Source: an uncultured Chitinophagaceae bacterium
Lineage (GTDB): Bacteria; Bacteroidota; Bacteroidia; Chitinophagales; Chitinophagaceae
Direction: 5' to 3'
Assembly: GCA_964605065.1 (NCBI GenBank)
Contig: CAZSAQ010000003.1
Location: 234,210 to 298,209, forward strand
Length of the DNA: 64,000 nucleotides
Below the pieces are notes generated by a model, which saw nothing but the letters and a program-made list of their open reading frames with translations, was not told where the DNA came from and made no database searches. This document shows, one piece after another, positions 18,209-62,614 of this stretch (positions within the stretch are counted from its first letter, which is position 1; the number at the start of each line of letters is the position of its first letter). The translations under genes and the position numbers were made by a program.

Positions 18209-18490
18209 ATGAAGAACTTATTATTTTTAATGCGGGTGGCCTTTATTTGCAATCTGTGCCTGCTGCTGGCCTGGTTGAGTAAAGACCTGTCCTTCCTGCC
18301 GGAGGGATATATTCAATCAACGGTTGTGATATTGGGCGTCGGACTTTCCTTTTTCCTGAACTTTATACTCTGCCTGCTGTTACTGGTTTGGTGGGGAATG
18401 CGCCGAAAGTTACCAGCTGATTTTCCGGGCTGGTTAATTATCGCTAATTTCCTTTTTTTAATTCCTCAAGTATACCTGCTGCTCAAATGA
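18209..18490 (+). CDS. Small 3-TM membrane protein (hypothetical), translationally coupled to yhhQ
   Basis: 93 aa, very hydrophobic (LCLLLAWL, VVILGVGLSFFLNFILCLLLLVWW). Its stop overlaps the next start (ATGA at 18487-18490). Confidence 0.45.
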   Translation: MKNLLFLMRVAFICNLCLLLAWLSKDLSFLPEGYIQSTVVILGVGLSFFLNFILCLLLLVWWGMRRKLPADFPGWLIIANFLFLIPQVYLLLK

Positions 18491-19263
18491 TCCACTACAT
18501 CATCAAGGACAAGCCTACCCGCCTATTTATTATTCTCGGCGGATTTTTTATTGCCAATGCTCTGATTGCCGAAGTAATAGGGGTGAAATTGTTTTCACTC
18601 GAGAAAACGCTGGGTTTTGCGCCTGCCAGCCTGGACCTGATGGGAGAGAAGGGCCTTGGTTTTTCGCTGACAGTGGGTGTGCTCCCCTGGCCGGTGGTCT
18701 TTATCATGACCGATATCATCAACGAATATTACGGAGTGAAGGGTGTAAGGTTTCTTTCCATTCTCACTGCGGGGTTGATCGCTTTCGCATTCCTGGTTTT
18801 CTACCTGGCCATCAAAACCACGCCCGACGATTTCTGGGTGGGCTCACAGGCAAAGAACAATGTTCCCAATATGCAGGACGCGTATACGCAGATACTCGGA
18901 CAGGGAATGAATATTATTGTGGCCTCACTGACAGCATTCCTTGTAGGGCAGCTCACGGATGCCACGGTATTCAAAAGGATCAAAAAATATACAGGTGAAA
19001 AGAATATATGGATGCGGGCAACGCTCTCTACGCTGGTTTCGCAGTTGATTGATACCATCGTCGTGTCTTATATGTTCCTCTATTTTTCGCTGCATTTTTC
19101 TTTCGCGCGCGTAACGGCCATTGCTTTCACCGGCTACCTGTACAAATTCACCGTTGCCATTCTTTGCACTCCCCTTATTTACCTGGTACATGCCTGGATA
19201 GAACGGTATCTCGGCCATGACAAGGCCCGTGAGATGAAAGAGGCGGCGATGATCAAAGGCTGA
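18487..19263 (+). CDS. yhhQ: Queuosine precursor transporter YhhQ (Vut/DUF165 family)
   Basis: PWPVVFIMTDIINEYYG ... RATLSTLVSQLIDTIVV are the conserved COG1738 motifs. Confidence 0.85.
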   Translation: MIHYIIKDKPTRLFIILGGFFIANALIAEVIGVKLFSLEKTLGFAPASLDLMGEKGLGFSLTVGVLPWPVVFIMTDIINEYYGVKGVRFLSILTAGLIAFAFLVFYLAIKTTPDDFWVGSQAKNNVPNMQDAYTQILGQGMNIIVASLTAFLVGQLTDATVFKRIKKYTGEKNIWMRATLSTLVSQLIDTIVVSYMFLYFSLHFSFARVTAIAFTGYLYKFTVAILCTPLIYLVHAWIERYLGHDKAREMKEAAMIKG

Positions 19264-19270
19264 TCATGAT

Positions 19271-19996
19271 TTACACAGAGTGATTGCGGCGGTCAAAGTC
19301 CTGTTTTGACAATTCCTGGTGTAGCCGTATGGAACGTAACGACATTTTGAGCGCGAAATAATAAGATACCATGGCGCCGGTAAACAGCAAACTGGCCGAA
19401 ATATATTTCGTAACAGATTCGCTGTTTTGCAGAAAAAGGAAGAAATCAAAAGTGCCGTGAAAGAAAGCAGCGATCAGCAAGCCCCTCCACAAATATTGCA
19501 GGGAATGTTCGGAATCAAATTTTGCCAGGCCCGCATGATAGCCCATCAGTACTCCAAAACAGGCATGCGCCGGAACGGAGAGAAACATTCGTAACAACCC
19601 GGTGGTGTACCCGTTTTCCAATACATATCCTACATTTTCAAGGGTGGCAAACCCCATGCTCACCATCACCGAATAGATTATGCCATCGAAAGGCTCGTCG
19701 AAGGCCTTCCGGGTATAGCCGTACCATCGCAGCATGATAAATTTGGAAGCTTCCTCGCCAAATCCAACCACAACATAGGCGAAAACAGCGTAATATCCGA
19801 TGGTTTTGCTATGAAAGAACTGCAGCACCTTTGGTTCATAGTATAACTGAAAAACAAGGGCGGGAACGGTACTCAGCACTCCCAGTAAAAAAGATACAAA
19901 CAGGTGCCTGACCGGCTCACGGTCGTATTTGTCTTTACTGTATATATAAAAGATGATCGCAATGGCCGGGGCCAGTGCCAGGGCTACCAGGTACAT
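19271..19996 (-). CDS. PrsW-family intramembrane glutamic protease
   Basis: Multi-TM protein with VVGFGEEASKF and FHGTFDFF motifs (PrsW EExxK/HxxxD). Confidence 0.8.
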   Translation of the reverse strand: MYLVALALAPAIAIIFYIYSKDKYDREPVRHLFVSFLLGVLSTVPALVFQLYYEPKVLQFFHSKTIGYYAVFAYVVVGFGEEASKFIMLRWYGYTRKAFDEPFDGIIYSVMVSMGFATLENVGYVLENGYTTGLLRMFLSVPAHACFGVLMGYHAGLAKFDSEHSLQYLWRGLLIAAFFHGTFDFFLFLQNSESVTKYISASLLFTGAMVSYYFALKMSLRSIRLHQELSKQDFDRRNHSV

Positions 19997-22115: not shown

Positions 22116-22724
22116 ATGACGACTGTTATTAATAAAGCAGACCCCGTAGTTTTCAATTTTGTACTGGAAAGACTTCAACGCTTTTTTCCTGTAACCCAGG
22201 AACAGGCCATGATGATGCTTAACTACAGCGAAATGCGTTACATCGATAAGAAAACGGTGCTGGTAGAAGAAGGGGGGATCGAAGATTATCTTAATATGGT
22301 TGTGAGCGGCCTGGCCCGGAAATACGTACGCAAAGGTAAAAGTGAGATCACCCTGCAGCTGGCTACCGAAGGCCATATCATACATTCCGAAATTTCATTT
22401 CTCCAAAGATGCCCCTCACCGGTGGTGGTGGAAACCATCGAACCCACCACTTTCATTTCGGTTTCCTATAGCAATTACCTGGACGCGCTGGAAAAAATGC
22501 CCGGTGCCGACCGTATCGGCCGGCTACTGGTAACTGCCATGTTTGTAAAGAAAGACGAAAGACATTATAACCAGTTGCAGCAAACCACGCGTGAGAGATT
22601 CCTGGAATACATGAAGAATCATCCCCACATGCTTCAACGCGTGCCGCAAAAATACCTGGCCTCCTATCTCAATATCAAACCCGAAACATTCAGCCGGCTC
22701 AAACACCTGGTTAAGCTGAAATAG
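22116..22724 (+). CDS. Crp/Fnr-family transcriptional regulator, tandem paralog of the upstream gene
   Basis: The HTH QRVPQKYLASYLNIKPETFSRLKHL is nearly identical to the neighbour and the N-terminal cNMP domain is diverged. Confidence 0.8.
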   Translation: MTTVINKADPVVFNFVLERLQRFFPVTQEQAMMMLNYSEMRYIDKKTVLVEEGGIEDYLNMVVSGLARKYVRKGKSEITLQLATEGHIIHSEISFLQRCPSPVVVETIEPTTFISVSYSNYLDALEKMPGADRIGRLLVTAMFVKKDERHYNQLQQTTRERFLEYMKNHPHMLQRVPQKYLASYLNIKPETFSRLKHLVKLK

Positions 22725-22908
22725 GAAAGAAAAAATGAATTAGCCAATGAGCCAATGGAGAAAAATTCCGAATGACGAATGACGAATTACTAAATACGGA
22801 TTAAATTAGCCAATTAGTGAATCACTGTTGTCCGGTTAAGACTTTACGGTTCTTTAAAAAAATACCCGCATTTCTTCCATCCGCATTGGCTCCCACCCTC
22901 ACCCCCAG

Positions 22909-22931
22909 CCCCTCTCCCGCGGGTAGAGGGG
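22909..22931. repeat. GC-rich hairpin (cccctctccc-gc-gggtagagggg) in convergent spacer
   Basis: Outer 7-bp arms cccctct/agagggg with an inner self-complementary cccgcggg. Confidence 0.5.
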
Positions 22932-23061
22932 AGTAATTCAGTAATTAGACTTTTCCTGGTATAATTACTGTTGCAGGTTTAATGCATGGTTTTTGAATAA
23001 TTGCCCGGCTTTATTCTGCAGCTGTTCACCACCGAAGAACTGAAGCTGGGCGTTAGACTAC

Positions 23062-23101
23062 GGAAACCGGGCTGTACATCGGTTTCCGGTCGCCTTTTTT
23101 T
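23062..23101 (+). terminator. Hairpin + T7 run (candidate intrinsic terminator)
   Basis: ggaaaccg/cggtttcc 8-bp stem with a 10-nt loop, then ggtcgcc and TTTTTTT. Confidence 0.45.
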
Positions 23102-23103
23102 GT

Positions 23104-23135
23104 GGTACTTTTTTTGGCGAAACAAAAAAAGTACC
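23104..23135. repeat. Perfect 12-bp-arm palindrome ggtacttttttt-ggcgaaac-aaaaaaagtacc
   Basis: Exact reverse-complement arms. Candidate bidirectional terminator for the convergent crp paralog and mntH genes. Confidence 0.55.
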
Positions 23136-23182
23136 ATCAGCGACTTGCCCCGGCAACAATGCCTCTATTATGCTCGCAAAAG

Positions 23183-23345
23183 CACTCGCTCCCGCACTCG
23201 CTCCCGCTCTCACTCCCGCTCTCGCTCTCACTCTCACTCTCAGTCACATTCTCTCGCTCTCAGTCTCGCCCTCTATCTCATTCTCTCTATCTCTATCTCT
23301 ATCTCATTCTCTTTCCCATTCTCATTCTCTTTCTCCTTCCGCGTC
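23183..23345. repeat. Degenerate hexanucleotide tandem repeat (CTCNYT)n, about 27 units, >80% pyrimidine on the + strand
   Basis: ctcgct cccgca ctcgct cccgct ctcact cccgct ctcgct ctcact ctcact ctcagt ... ctctat ctcatt. Units drift from G-containing to A/T-containing along the tract. Confidence 0.85.
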
Positions 23346-23362
23346 ATCCGCTTGCTTAGCCG

Positions 23363-25246
23363 TTAGAGGTTTACCACGAGCAGCGGGATTTTCAATTCGT
23401 GGCGAACGCCTTCAATCGTTTCTCCATATAACCAGTCTTTAATGCCTGTATGACCATGCGCGCCGATGATGAGCATATCCGCCTCGTTTTCCTTTACCAG
23501 CCTGGCAATCTCCTTTGCCCGTTTGTTGAATCCGAGTTTTCCTTCGGCACGCAGCCCGTTTTGTTCGAGCAAGCGTACATATTGCTGCAGTCGTTCCTCG
23601 TCGGTACGCGTTTCATAGTCATCGCTCTCTCTTCCCAGCATTCGCGAGGAGGCGCTTTCCACCACATGGATCAGCAGGTACCGGGTATCAGGTTTACCCT
23701 GGCTGATGGCATGGGCCAGCAGCTTCTCGTCGTTTTCGCTGAAATCCAATGCCACCGCTATTTTCCGGTAAAATGGAATTTCGGAGAACACCAGGTTTTT
23801 GCCGGCAGGATGGAGGTTGATATCTTTTCCTCGCCTTTTCCTCGGTAGCCAGGGAAACAGGCTGATATATACCAGCAGGCCTAACAGCGAAGCAGAACCG
23901 GCGATTATCAGGATCTTCCAGCCGATATGTCCGGCACGGCCAAAGTAGTCGACAATTTCCCCGACCACCATTTTTATGTTCAGGTAAACAAGAATGGCAG
24001 CGATCAGCCAGGCAAGGAGTTTAACGTAAGGTTTGATCACGAACTCACCCATCTTCTCTTTATCGCTTACAAAATGTATAAGGGGGATGATGGCAAATCC
24101 CAATTGCAGGCTGAGGATCACCTGGCTGAGGATAAGAAGTTTGTCTACTTCCTGGTCTCCATAAATACCGATCAGCACAACAGCCGGAACGATGGCGAGC
24201 AAGCGGGTAAGCAACCTTCGCATCCAGGGATTGATACGAAGTTTCAGATAACCTTCCATTACGATCTGGCCCGCGAGGGTACCGGTTACTGTAGAACTTT
24301 GCCCGGCGGCTATCAGGGCAACGGCAAACAAAACCGGGGCCATTTTGGATCCCAGCAACTGGTTGAGCAACTCATGCGCCTGTTTCAATTCAGCCACATC
24401 TGTCCGGCCGGATTTAAAAAATACCGTTGCCGCCAATACCAGGATGGCTGCATTCACCAGGAACGCAATATTCAGGGCTATGGCCGAATCCAGGAAATTC
24501 CATTTCAAGGCCTGCCGGATTCCTGCACTCGTCCTTTGTATTTTCCGTGTTTGAACCAGGGCCGAATGCAGGTAAAGATTGTGCGGCATCACCGTTGCTC
24601 CAATGATACCGATGGCGATATAAAGCGCTTCATTATTGGGGATCGTGGGCACAAAGCCGGTCAACATTTCTCCGGGGGAAGGTTTTGCCAGGATGATCTC
24701 CACCAGGAAGCTGAGGCCAACAATGGCCACCAGCCCGATGATAAATGCTTCCATCTTTCGCATGCCCAACCGTTGAAGAAACAGCAGCAGAAAAGTATCG
24801 AAAACCGTAATGGCAACACCCCAGATCAGGGGAAGGCCCGTCAGCAAATGGATACCAATGGCCATACCCAATACCTCTGCCAGGTCACAGGCGGCGATGG
24901 CGATCTCTGCCAATGCGTACAGGGCGATGTTAACCATCTTCGGATAGGTTTCGCGATTGGCCTGCGCCAGGTCACGCCCTCTCACAATTCCCAGGCGCGT
25001 CGAAAGCCCCTGCAGCAGCAACGCCATCAGGTTGCTCATCAGCAACACCCAGATCAGTTTATAACCAAACTGGCTGCCACCTGCCAGGTCGGTAGCCCAG
25101 TTGCCCGGATCCATATACCCTACACTCACAAGATAGGCCGGTCCGAAAAACGCAAATGCCTTTCTCCAGCCCGATTTTTTCAGGCTGATATCTACCGAGC
25201 CATGCACATCGCTCAGCGAATGATCATGATGGGGGTTAGTCGTCAT
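23363..25246 (-). CDS. mntH: NRAMP-family divalent-metal (Mn2+/Fe2+) transporter fused to a C-terminal universal stress protein (UspA) domain
   Basis: The Nramp signature is GYMDPGNWATDLAGGSQFGYKLIWVLLMSNLMALLLQ. About 11 TM helices are followed by a C-terminal USP domain (KIAVALDFSEND...MLIIGAHGHTGIKDWLYGE...PLLVV). Confidence 0.9.
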   Translation of the reverse strand: MTTNPHHDHSLSDVHGSVDISLKKSGWRKAFAFFGPAYLVSVGYMDPGNWATDLAGGSQFGYKLIWVLLMSNLMALLLQGLSTRLGIVRGRDLAQANRETYPKMVNIALYALAEIAIAACDLAEVLGMAIGIHLLTGLPLIWGVAITVFDTFLLLFLQRLGMRKMEAFIIGLVAIVGLSFLVEIILAKPSPGEMLTGFVPTIPNNEALYIAIGIIGATVMPHNLYLHSALVQTRKIQRTSAGIRQALKWNFLDSAIALNIAFLVNAAILVLAATVFFKSGRTDVAELKQAHELLNQLLGSKMAPVLFAVALIAAGQSSTVTGTLAGQIVMEGYLKLRINPWMRRLLTRLLAIVPAVVLIGIYGDQEVDKLLILSQVILSLQLGFAIIPLIHFVSDKEKMGEFVIKPYVKLLAWLIAAILVYLNIKMVVGEIVDYFGRAGHIGWKILIIAGSASLLGLLVYISLFPWLPRKRRGKDINLHPAGKNLVFSEIPFYRKIAVALDFSENDEKLLAHAISQGKPDTRYLLIHVVESASSRMLGRESDDYETRTDEERLQQYVRLLEQNGLRAEGKLGFNKRAKEIARLVKENEADMLIIGAHGHTGIKDWLYGETIEGVRHELKIPLLVVNL

Positions 25247-33073: not shown

Positions 33074-34087
33074 TTGACTCCTGCCGCCTGGAAAATACTA
33101 CAGCCCGTAATGATCCTTTTTGGAATTACCGTGATCGGTGTCGTGGGCTATATGATCATTGAACATTTTACCCTGGTGGAGGCGATCTATATGACCACCA
33201 TCTCGGTAACCACGGCGGGATTTACGGAAGTGAGGCCACTCAGCAACGAAGGCAGAATGTTTACCGTTTTTCTGCTGATCGTAAGCTGGTGTTTCTTTGC
33301 CTTTGCCCTGACCCGCCTCACCCAATACATAATTAGCGGAGAAATCAATAAATATTTTAAAACCCGCCGGACCATGAACTCAATATCAAAACTCAAGGAT
33401 CATGTGATCATTTGTGGCTATGGCCGAAACGGGCAACAGGCCGCGGCCACTTTAGGCTATCACGGACAGGAATATGTCGTTATAGAAAGTGACATCAAGC
33501 GGGTGGAAACAGCGCAGGCCGAAGATCCCGAATTGTTGATGATTCACGGAGACAGTACAGACGATGACGTGCTTAGAAAAGCCGGTATATTATCTGCCAA
33601 AGCCCTGATCAGTGCGCTGCCAATCGATTCCAATAACGTATTCATCGTATTATCCGCCCGCTCGCTCAACCCCAACATCCAGATCATCAGCAGGGCTTCC
33701 GAAAGCAGCACTTTCCCGAAGCTGAAAAAGGCGGGAGCGAATAATGTGATCATGCCCGACAAGATCGGCGGTACGCATATGGCTACCCTTGTATCCAAAC
33801 CGGATGTTATTGAATTTATTGATTATTTATCGGGGGAAGAAGGTGAGGCCATCCATATCGAGTCTGTTTCTTATGATCAGTTGCCGGATAATATACGTGA
33901 CCGCTCACTGAGCGAGATCATGGCCTGGAAAAAAACAGGCGTCAACTGTATCGGTCTCAAAGATGCGGAAGGAAAATTTCTGATCAATCCGCCGGAAGAT
34001 GTACTGGTAAAAGAAGGAATGAAAGTGCTGGTACTCGGCACCCGCCAGCAGATTCAGCGGATGAAAATTAATATTAGTGACGATTAG
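33074..34087 (+). CDS. Potassium channel protein with TrkA-N/TrkA-C (RCK) regulatory domains
   Basis: 2-TM pore region (TTAGFTEV), then VIICGYGRNGQQAA (Rossmann RCK_N) and a C-terminal RCK_C. Start is uncertain: TTG at 33074 or ATG at 33110. Confidence 0.8.
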   Translation: MTPAAWKILQPVMILFGITVIGVVGYMIIEHFTLVEAIYMTTISVTTAGFTEVRPLSNEGRMFTVFLLIVSWCFFAFALTRLTQYIISGEINKYFKTRRTMNSISKLKDHVIICGYGRNGQQAAATLGYHGQEYVVIESDIKRVETAQAEDPELLMIHGDSTDDDVLRKAGILSAKALISALPIDSNNVFIVLSARSLNPNIQIISRASESSTFPKLKKAGANNVIMPDKIGGTHMATLVSKPDVIEFIDYLSGEEGEAIHIESVSYDQLPDNIRDRSLSEIMAWKKTGVNCIGLKDAEGKFLINPPEDVLVKEGMKVLVLGTRQQIQRMKINISDD

Positions 34088-34259
34088 TTTGGTTTGCAGT
34101 TTGTAGTTTGCGGTTTGCAGTTTAATAATGTTGTTTACTAAAATTGATTTAAATTAGAATCAGTTTCCATTGGATTAATATCTGAAATACTTCTAGATTT
34201 TTGATAAGTAAAACCGCAAACTGCAAACCGCAAACTGCAAACCGCAAACTATAAACTAC
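34088..34259. repeat. Heptamer-periodic inverted-repeat element, copy A, filling a convergent junction
   Basis: Left arm (ggtttgc agtttgt agtttgc ggtttgc agttt) and right arm (aaaccgcaaactgcaaaccgcaaactgcaaaccgcaaact) flank an AT-rich 87-bp spacer. The right arm ends at the FKBP stop codon. Confidence 0.85.
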
Positions 34260-34981
34260 TTCAAAATATCCAGCAACTCGACTTCAAATATTAAAGTGGA
34301 ACCGGCTTTGATTACCGGACCGGCGTCACTGTCGCCATAAGCCAGATTGGAGGGGATAAACAATCTCCATTTGCTTCCAACGGGCATCATCGGCAGCGCT
34401 TCCACCCAGCCTGGAATCACCTGACCGATCATCAGTTCAATAGGCTCTCCTCTTTCAACAGAGCTATCGAAAACCGTACCATCGATCAGGGTGCCATGGT
34501 AATGAACTTTTACTTTATCGGTTACAGCTGGCTTGGGGCCGGTACCTTCTTTCAATATCATGTATTGAAGGCCGCTGGCAGTAGTAACTACACCCGGCTT
34601 CTTTTTATTTTCCGCCAGAAAAGCTTCTCCGGCCTTGCGTGTACCGGACGATTTTTCGCTTCTGACCTTCTGCATGTAAGCCATGATCACGTTGTTCACT
34701 TCAGATTCATTCAGGCCCGGTTTGCCCGAACTGCAATCAGAAAAACCTTTTGTGATCAGCGAACTGTTTATGTTGGTGATGCCTTGTTCTTTGTAAAAAT
34801 TGGCAATGCTGACGCCAATGGCATAACTGAAAGAATCAGTCGGGTTTTTCAATACGGGTCTGGTAACGGCAGTCTTGGAGGATTTTACCCCGGGCTTGAC
34901 CGCCGCCGGTTTTTTGGCGCCCCCCTGGGCATAACTTCCTAAAGAAGCACTCATCAGAAACAGGATCAACAATTTTTGCAT
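34256..34981 (-). CDS. FKBP-type peptidyl-prolyl cis-trans isomerase (secreted)
   Basis: Signal peptide, then VKVHYHGTLIDGTVFDSSVERGEPIELMIGQVIPGWVEAL. Confidence 0.9.
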   Translation of the reverse strand: MQKLLILFLMSASLGSYAQGGAKKPAAVKPGVKSSKTAVTRPVLKNPTDSFSYAIGVSIANFYKEQGITNINSSLITKGFSDCSSGKPGLNESEVNNVIMAYMQKVRSEKSSGTRKAGEAFLAENKKKPGVVTTASGLQYMILKEGTGPKPAVTDKVKVHYHGTLIDGTVFDSSVERGEPIELMIGQVIPGWVEALPMMPVGSKWRLFIPSNLAYGDSDAGPVIKAGSTLIFEVELLDILK

Positions 34982-40370: not shown

Positions 40371-40550
40371 CCGTAAACCTCAAACAGTAAACAGCAAACT
40401 GTAATCCCTCGATTATGCCATCGCCGTAGAGGAACGCAAAGATCAAAAACCGGTCAACGTCTTTTAGGCATGGACAATAAACAAACCGTAAACCACAAAC
40501 TGTAAACCTCAAACCTCAAACAGTAAACAGCAAACGCCAAAACCAAACCT
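40371..40550. repeat. Heptamer-periodic element, copy B (direct-repeat variant)
   Basis: Two same-orientation AAAC-type arms (ccgtaaa cctcaaa cagtaaa cagcaaa ctgtaa ... aaacaaa ccgtaaa ccacaaa ctgtaaa cctcaaa cctcaaa cagtaaa cagcaaa cgccaaa accaaacc). They share an exact 25-mer aaacctcaaacagtaaacagcaaac around a 74-bp spacer. Confidence 0.85.
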
Positions 40551-49417: not shown

Positions 49418-49520
49418 GCGATTGGGGTTTATCGTTTCACGTTTCTGGTTTCACGTTGTTTAGCCATTCAGAGTTCATGCGCATAAACGAAAAACGTGAA
49501 ACGATAAACGCCAATCGGTC
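49415..49520. repeat. Heptamer-periodic inverted-repeat element, copy E (GTTTCAC variant)
   Basis: cgattggGgtttatcgtttcacgttt ... aaacgtgaaacgataaacGccaatcg are ~28-bp near-perfect inverted arms around a 27-bp loop. It spans from the stop of the + gene to the stop of the - gene. Confidence 0.85.
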
Positions 49521-58980: not shown

Positions 58981-59092
58981 GGTTTGCAGTTTGCTGTTTG
59001 CCGTTTGCGGATAGACCAGTCTAAAAGCTGTTACTTCCTCTTTAAAAGACGGGGGTGGAGCTTAACAGCAAACTGTAAACGGCAAACCTCAA
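58981..59092. repeat. Heptamer-periodic inverted-repeat element, copy C
   Basis: ggtttgc agtttgc tgtttgc cgtttgc gg ... 55-bp spacer ... cagcaaa ctgtaaa cggcaaa cctcaaa. It lies downstream of glgC. Confidence 0.85.
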
Positions 59093-62464: not shown

Positions 62465-62614
62465 GTGGTTTGAAGTTTACCGTTTGAGGTTTACGGTTCG
62501 ATCGCAGTCAGCGTACTCCTCTGAAGTATAGTCTGTCGTTAAGAACAGACAGATTTAAATACGATTACGAATGATTCAACAGAAAACCTCAAACTTCAAA
62601 CCTCAAACAACCGA
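62465..62614. repeat. Heptamer-periodic inverted-repeat element, copy D, filling a convergent junction
   Basis: ggtttga agtttac cgtttga ggtttac ggtt ... 84-bp spacer ... aaaacctcaaacttcaaacctcaaacaacc. Confidence 0.85.

Follow-up and report, generated by a model that had tools for sequence, protein, structure and literature searches.

We found that the purine/pyrimidine-asymmetric tract beyond the mntH gene of an uncultured Chitinophagaceae bacterium is a non-coding, degenerate hexanucleotide array, which is restricted to a few lineages and differs by whole units among them. A homologous array, accompanied by the same neighbouring modules, fills a different spacer in sister strains. The tract is probably a hypervariable, slippage-driven and essentially neutral or selfish variable number tandem repeat (VNTR), which forms one module of a composite repeat element of ~260-300 bp lying between convergent stop codons. 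All coordinates given without a contig name refer to the window, that is, the whole 64,000-nucleotide stretch of DNA that was analysed. The features concerned are the following.

18487-19263, + strand: Vut_1 gene
19264-19270, no strand: empty second site, the 7-bp spacer between the Vut_1 and PrsW genes
19271-19996, - strand: PrsW-family protease gene
22116-22724, + strand: gene for a cNMP-binding-domain protein, the convergent neighbour of mntH-usp, identified by domain search
22737-22758, no strand: octamer array (CATTGGCT)~2.5, abutting the stop codon of the cNMP-binding gene
22768-22788, no strand: heptamer array (TTCGTCA)~2.7, the right-hand module of the element, homologous to (TCCGTAA/TCCGTCA)n of the relatives L218 and L219
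22854-23181, no strand: internal segment found only in the long-form spacer (window and the relative L085)
22888-22933, sequence given for the - strand: REP-like G/C-rich hairpin CTCCCCTCTACCCGCGGGAGAGGGGCTGGGGGTGAGGGTGGGAGCC of the long-form spacer
22930-23060: structured stretch in the long-form segment
23060-23101, + strand: terminator-like hairpin with a T-run, the sole terminator-like site in the spacer
23104-23135: hairpin in the long-form segment
23182-23267, no strand: GC-rich sub-array (GAGAGY/GGGAGY/GAGTGC in the gene sense)
23183-23345, no strand: degenerate hexamer array (the tract) of ~24 units of type GRGNNN, with the - strand, the sense strand of mntH, as the purine-rich strand
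23271-23336, no strand: AT-rich sub-array (GAGAAA/GAGAAT/GAGATA; GAGAAW/GAGATA), adjoining the mntH stop and found at this locus only
23337-23362, - strand: flank between the mntH stop and the array, containing the heptamer-like unit GGATGACG
23363-25246, - strand: Nramp and Usp fusion gene (mntH-usp), 627 aa, Pfam PF01566 and PF00582
25236-25922: DtxR-family regulator gene, upstream of mntH-usp and overlapping it by 11 nt

The array and its spacer

The tract occupies 163 nt (A17 C74 G12 T60) of a 638-bp spacer between the convergent mntH-usp and cNMP-binding genes. It ends 17 nt from the stop codon of the Nramp-Usp fusion gene, close to the distance of about 20 bp given in a preliminary description of this DNA. 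The + strand is 82.2% pyrimidine, and autocorrelation maxima at lags of 6, 12 and 18 (0.73, 0.74 and 0.68, respectively) give a period of 6. Overlapping arrays with periods of 6, 12, 24, 26 and 32 were called over 23185-23339 by TRF. The earlier characterization of a slippage-prone hexamer array with more than 80% pyrimidine on the + strand is thus borne out by measurement. On the other hand, the same description had counted about 27 hexamers all starting with CTC. The repeat is real, but only 16 of 27 hexamers are CTC-initial in any single register. A flexible parse of the - strand yields 24 units, 20 of GAG type and 4 of GGG type, mostly at a spacing of 6 nt, and two irregular units of 8 and 14 nt change the register. 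The drift of unit types that had been noticed along the tract is also found, with GC-rich units at 23182-23267 and AT-rich units at 23271-23336.

A search for further (CTCNYT)n tracts, as had been proposed, led back to the same place: (CTCNYT)3 with at most one mismatch has 12 matches in the window, all 12 of them within the tract, where shuffles expect 0.04. Nowhere else in the 64-kb window do purines or pyrimidines make up at least 85% of a 60-nt frame. In the flank towards mntH, the unit GGATGACG is the inverted complement of the right-hand TTCGTCA heptamers over 8 bp with one G-U, as far as the pairing can be read from the sequence.

No sigma-70-like promoter match was found in the spacer, and the Bacteroidota TAnnTTTG motif is missing from both strands of 22650-23450. 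The whole window has no Rfam match at the gathering threshold; a relaxed E-value threshold gave chance-level matches to the flanking hairpins only. In the mntH-sense RNA, the mntH-proximal part of the tract is predicted to be unpaired, and the centroid structure leaves almost the whole tract unpaired. These results argue against an independent sRNA, which had been suggested earlier. The short-form elements, folded as RNA, show no significant whole-element structure (z = -0.5 and -0.6).

The long-form segment has features of its own. On the + strand, 22930-23145 comprises four hairpins (z = -5.6), the terminal one being the terminator-like hairpin with the T-run. This stretch is present in the window and L085 and missing from the short allele L094; it has no match in Rfam and may have been inserted secondarily or encode a small structured RNA. 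The REP-like hairpin at 22888-22933 has a 41-nt match in an unrelated metagenome contig (L149), a similarity which suggests that it may be a widespread small repeat. When the spacer was compared by BLAST with the window and with all loci, this 41-nt match was the only further copy of any non-repeat part.

Distribution, variation and the second locus

The sequences examined comprise ~64 kb of the source genome and ~20 kb per relative, so that copy number and mobility are poorly sampled; the 64 kb of the source genome contain one copy of the element. Closer relatives were taken from a protein cluster, and the nearest GTDB species representatives are Chitinophagaceae with at most 71% protein identity. 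One contig, L001, matches the window without a difference along 7.9 kb. No purine or pyrimidine tract was found at any of 80 other Bacteroidota mntH loci. The mntH/cNMP spacer is only 26 bp in eight loci with 93% identical MntH, and 3 bp in a relative with 77% identity. At the mntH site, the tract is found in three lineages only, namely the window, L094 (99.2% nucleotide identity in the gene) and L085/L217 (86% nucleotide identity). In 702 kb of related sequence, such a tract occurs only at this locus and at one other.

The other locus is the spacer between the convergent PrsW and Vut_1 genes, which measures 257-285 bp in L218 and L219, whereas the window has 7 bp there and L217 has 5 bp. L218 and L219, both relatives with 93% MntH identity, have no tract at mntH, and possess (GAGAGC/GGGAGC/GAGTGC)n directly 3' of the PrsW stop codon. 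In both, the hexamer array is followed by a linker, then by (TCCGTAA/TCCGTCA)n heptamers and then by CATTGGCTCATTGACCAATTG. The order and orientation of these modules are those of the mntH spacer. The GC-rich sub-array of the window is 87-93% identical over 46-53 nt to the PrsW/Vut_1 arrays of L218 and L219, and the right-hand modules of the two loci are collinear with 74% identity over 80 nt. Because a homologous array with the same neighbouring modules in the same order fills the PrsW/Vut_1 spacer, we regard the tract as a module of a composite element of ~260-300 bp that is present in at least two convergent spacers. The preliminary description considered the tract alone and missed this larger element.

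Of the two non-orthologous convergent spacers, each is occupied by the element in one lineage and lacks it in the other, a pattern shared with MITE-like elements. The ends of the element show only inverted heptamer matches of 8-10 bp, with no clear terminal inverted repeat and no definable target-site duplication. The array abuts the stop codon of one of the two genes at each locus, and the sense strand of that gene is the purine-rich one (n = 2, with related copies).

The tract varies by whole units between strains. Compared with the window, L094 has gained one GAGAAT unit (+6 nt) and lost one GATAGA unit (-6 nt), and the AT-rich sub-array is the site of this gain and loss. The G residues at unit positions 1 and 3 are invariant between alleles, whereas the remaining positions vary. 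After GAGACTGAGAGCGAGA, L094 lacks the rest of the GC-rich half together with ~370 bp of hairpins and the REP-like element, with a breakpoint at ~23252. A complete short allele of 299 bp was obtained by joining L094 with L385; it has at least six octamer units beside the cNMP gene versus 2.5 in the window. L218 and L219 have identical MntH proteins and are ~98% identical overall; their tracts differ by a 30-nt gap, corresponding to five units, and by unit changes, and few stretches of their 15-kb alignment diverge as much as the PrsW/Vut_1 spacer. Length polymorphism between strains, which had been proposed as a check, is thus clearly present at both loci. However, the reasoning that such polymorphism counts against neutrality was inverted: neutral microsatellites show polymorphism, and polymorphism is not evidence of function.

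Substitutions are also in excess. Between the window and L085, 18 of 167 alignment columns differ in the tract (10.8%) versus 5 of 458 in the remaining spacer (1.1%; Fisher p = 2e-7), an approximately tenfold difference. The same two sequences share a ~1.1-kb patch with 93-100% identity. It extends over 4400-5550 of L001/L085 (window ~22700-23850) and covers the whole spacer and the last ~500 nt of mntH, that is, the end of the Usp domain. Because this patch stands amid a background of ~83% identity, the alignment indicates a probable recent recombination between the window and L085 lineages, across a species-level divergence.

The arrays flanking the tract, heptamers (TTCGTCA/TCCGTAA)n and octamers (CATTGGCY)n, are length-polymorphic as well (window 22737-22788; L094 3560-3648; L385 1503-1561; L218 13790-13860). 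Several Logan contigs assembled with k=31 from independent runs stop in this region: L002, L004 and L096 end inside the tract, and L382, L383, L384 and L386 all end at window position 22853, the edge of the long-form segment. That these ends coincide to the base on either side of the long-form insert fits either a repeat copy elsewhere in the genome or mixtures of alleles within a sample. The ends inside the tract might reflect within-sample heterogeneity. They are no proof of it, because the longest exact repeat internal to the tract (16 nt) is shorter than k and low coverage explains these ends equally well.

Kind of element and possible roles of the array

The tract consists of short head-to-tail units beyond chance, is polymorphic in length by whole units and diverges more than its flanks, as is characteristic of simple sequence repeats/VNTRs (LSSR). 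Our best reading is that it belongs to a known kind, the prokaryotic LSSR or STRR-like intergenic repeats. Prokaryotic STRs are known to be indel hot spots (PMC12699852). As LSSR/VNTR with 5-11-nt units are described in PMC12699852 and in the summary of Mrazek et al. 2007 given in PMC4679880, they resemble the tract in being intergenic, in consisting of tandem short units, in their sporadic occurrence among lineages, and in whole-unit indels between strains for which slippage is presumed. Set against these descriptions, the tract is unusual in being long (163 nt), highly degenerate and strongly purine/pyrimidine-asymmetric, and in belonging to a composite element found at a second locus as well.

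Intergenic assemblages of 5-11-nt repeats are found in Cyanobacteria (STRR), Beggiatoaceae and some Bacteroidetes, where they are missing in close relatives and break assemblies (PMC2670836, PMC4679880). The cyanobacterial STRR and the heptamer assemblages of these three groups have in common with the present element several short arrays per spacer, inverted hairpin-forming heptamer arrays, the same spacer being empty in close relatives, and assembly breaks (PMC2670836, PMC4679880). The tract differs from them in its 6-nt unit, its lack of self-pairing and its Chitinophagaceae host, and it lies between convergent stop codons, whereas those assemblages lie upstream of start codons. Pneumococcal BOX elements, organized as boxA-(boxB)n-boxC, and enterobacterial REP/BIME are small and modular, do not code for protein, contain internal repeats in varying number and often lie at 3' ends. 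They share with the element described here the small non-coding modules, the variable repeat count, the location outside genes and the presence or absence by strain. Unlike them, our element has a far shorter internal unit, shows no sequence similarity to either and was seen at only two loci across strains.

We propose that the element is composed, in this order, of a short heptamer end, the purine hexamer array, a unique linker, a heptamer array and an octamer array. The arrays would grow, shrink and homogenize by slipped-strand mispairing and by unequal exchange between units. Copies of the whole element have probably reached at least two different convergent spacers, and recombination of its flanks has probably carried it between lineages; convergent spacers would tolerate such inserts because they lack promoters. 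The strand asymmetry would be inherited from a founding purine-rich unit. The GC-rich half is presumably the older one, because it is common to the other locus, and the AT-rich half would be a local expansion beside the mntH stop codon. The view that the gradient of unit types records a stepwise expansion is in keeping with this picture, since the GC-rich half shares unit types with the second locus and the AT-rich half is locus-specific. If transcription runs on past the stop codon, the mntH 3' UTR would begin with the tract as an unstructured, purine-rich part. The effect on the cell is most likely none or slight. Two observations sit less easily with a neutral array. The sense-strand orientation and the in-frame start of the array at both loci could hint at a rule, though with n = 2 and related copies, and the G kept at unit positions 1 and 3 is what selection on GRG predicts, although whole-unit exchange predicts the same.

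An unlikely alternative, yet the strongest of the functional ones, is that the tract insulates the abutting gene in a strand-specific manner by loading Rho, like a rut site. Transcripts reading through from the convergent gene would contain the tract as (CUCNYU)n, rich in C, poor in G and unstructured, and Rho would halt this antisense transcription before it enters mntH-usp and, likewise, PrsW at the second locus. A rut site is a C-rich, G-poor, unstructured RNA of roughly 80 nt. The + strand of the tract, and only this strand, has such a composition, with 45% C, 7% G and 58 YC dinucleotides; the top 78-nt frame of the window for C minus G lies inside it (+0.41, ~4.9 SD over the mean), and at both loci the abutting gene has the C-rich strand as its antisense strand. 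However, close relatives do without the tract although their convergent genes are only 3-26 bp apart, a terminator-like hairpin on the + strand (23060-23101) already precedes the tract in the window, and the tract is hypervariable, with half of it deleted in L094. It is quite unlikely that the element represents an undescribed family of Chitinophagaceae intergenic elements homing to the stop-proximal ends of convergent pairs, whose array would be inert as sense RNA and would insulate the abutting gene as an antisense Rho-loading or R-loop-prone barrier.

TRAP sites consist of 9-11 (G/U)AG triplets with 2-3-nt spacers in Bacillus trp leaders. The tract resembles them in its evenly spaced GAG triplets and its unstructured RNA strand, and a ring-shaped or multimeric RNA-binding protein on the ~24 G(A/G)G triplets of the mntH 3' UTR might affect mRNA stability. 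The number of triplets (20 GAG and 4 GGG, mostly at 6-nt spacing), the 3-nt spacers, the invariant G at positions 1 and 3 with variable spacer residues, and the predicted single-strandedness of most of the tract, especially its mntH-proximal part, would all suit such a platform. We nevertheless judge it very unlikely. The tract lies 3' of the gene rather than in a 5' leader, is restricted to a few strains and is not conserved; GAG-to-GGG changes are frequent and GGG triplets many; half of the tract is dispensable in L094; and the invariant G follows equally from whole-unit exchange. We know of no candidate TRAP-type protein or TRAP homologue in Bacteroidota.

The tract is non-coding. The ORFs across it have no Pfam match and no gene call in public contigs, and no start codon or frame is shared between alleles, in line with the earlier view that the six-frame ORFs over the tract are artefacts. 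The array does start in frame with the upstream stop codon in all five alleles, reading (E-x)n or (ER)n, and the unit variants of L218 and L219 are mostly synonymous in the ER frame (CGA/CGG/AGG, GAG/GAA). In addition, most arrays with the GC-rich unit pattern in IMG/VR are coding linkers, 101 of 125 lying inside ORFs of at least 600 nt. A decayed or occasionally translated coding repeat, such as an (E-x)n/(ER)n read-through tail, a small ORF or what is left of a low-complexity linker, might be imagined from these features, but it is very improbable. The ER frame contains TGA stops in the window and L085, the candidate ATG is replaced by ATT in L219 and by ATA in L085, the alleles have different sequences beyond the array, and an in-frame start at two loci has a chance probability of ~0.1. 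A protein-coding reading was accordingly rejected: striking as (ER)n is in L218 and L219, its start, stops and tail are not conserved.

Triplex formation and phase variation had also been put forward for this tract. H-DNA requires homopurine/homopyrimidine mirror repeats (PMC4060949, PMC11667243). The tract shares with such repeats an 82% purine/pyrimidine strand asymmetry and lacks their defining features: a pyrimidine interrupts the purine strand about every 6 nt, perfect mirror arms are at most 10 nt long, so that the tract is not mirror-like in the sense that H-DNA requires, and the longest uninterrupted purine run is 16 nt, ordinary for a window that has runs of 25, 19 and 18 nt elsewhere. 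Length polymorphism would agree with a contingency locus in which unit number switches a neighbouring gene. However, the tract lies between two 3' ends, outside any promoter or ORF that could be switched. An H-DNA former or contingency locus is therefore highly improbable. The chance that the tract is an assembly artefact, as the Logan contigs from several runs stopping inside or beside it might suggest, is negligible, given the identical tract in two independent JGI assemblies from separate samples, the variant alleles in ENA, NCBI and Logan assemblies of other samples, and the longest exact internal repeat of only 16 nt.

Related arrays and the meaning of the element

A metagenome contig scan with the exact distal flank (32-mer) gave no match, and the source samples are therefore absent from that metagenome collection. 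Scanning with (GRGNNY)8 returned at least 120 generic hexanucleotide microsatellites, mostly perfect and including telomere-like GGGGTT, and no bacterial family emerged. The degenerate tracts most like that of the window (L102, L164, L187 and L203) are on ORF-poor, eukaryote-like contigs. Among the IMG/VR arrays with the GC-rich unit pattern, none lies within 500 nt of a heptamer module. The heptamers themselves are more widespread. We found (TTCGTCA/TTCGTAA)n arrays in 39 stretches of IMG/VR contigs; some form inverted pairs, and some contigs have several. The 12 stretches examined have GC contents of 0.31-0.69. The (TCCGTAA/TTCGTCA)n module of the element also matches arrays on plasmids of heterocystous cyanobacteria with ~86% identity.

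Elsewhere in the window, ten (GTTTNNN)n arrays of at least three units lie beside gene 3' ends (34088-34257, 40375-40535, 49427-49509, 58982-59087 and 62468-62608). Most begin within ~20 nt of a stop codon, and those checked are in the gene-sense orientation. Such arrays are found neither in shuffles nor in 630 kb of other Bacteroidota loci. The pairs tested are predicted to form long stop-to-stop hairpins across the spacer, with z = -10.3 (34085-34260), -7.3, -4.8 and -3.6. The corresponding FKBP/TrkA spacer of L217 and L219 also has inverted heptamer arrays, but their units are different on both arms, so that the arms have changed together. The (GTTTNNN)n hairpins may be a clade-specific type of bidirectional 3'-end element. 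These stop-abutting heptamer-array hairpins are a more striking feature than the hexamer tract.

The hexamer tract is a well-documented hypervariable simple-sequence array in a bacterial spacer and has little significance alone. It could be used as a strain marker, and it may explain why short-read assemblies break here. As an example of a large, strand-asymmetric tract that has arisen and spread in bacteria with no detectable function, it cautions against inferring H-DNA or phase variation from every purine/pyrimidine tract. The wider context is that convergent spacers in this clade are filled with short-period arrays starting at stop codons.
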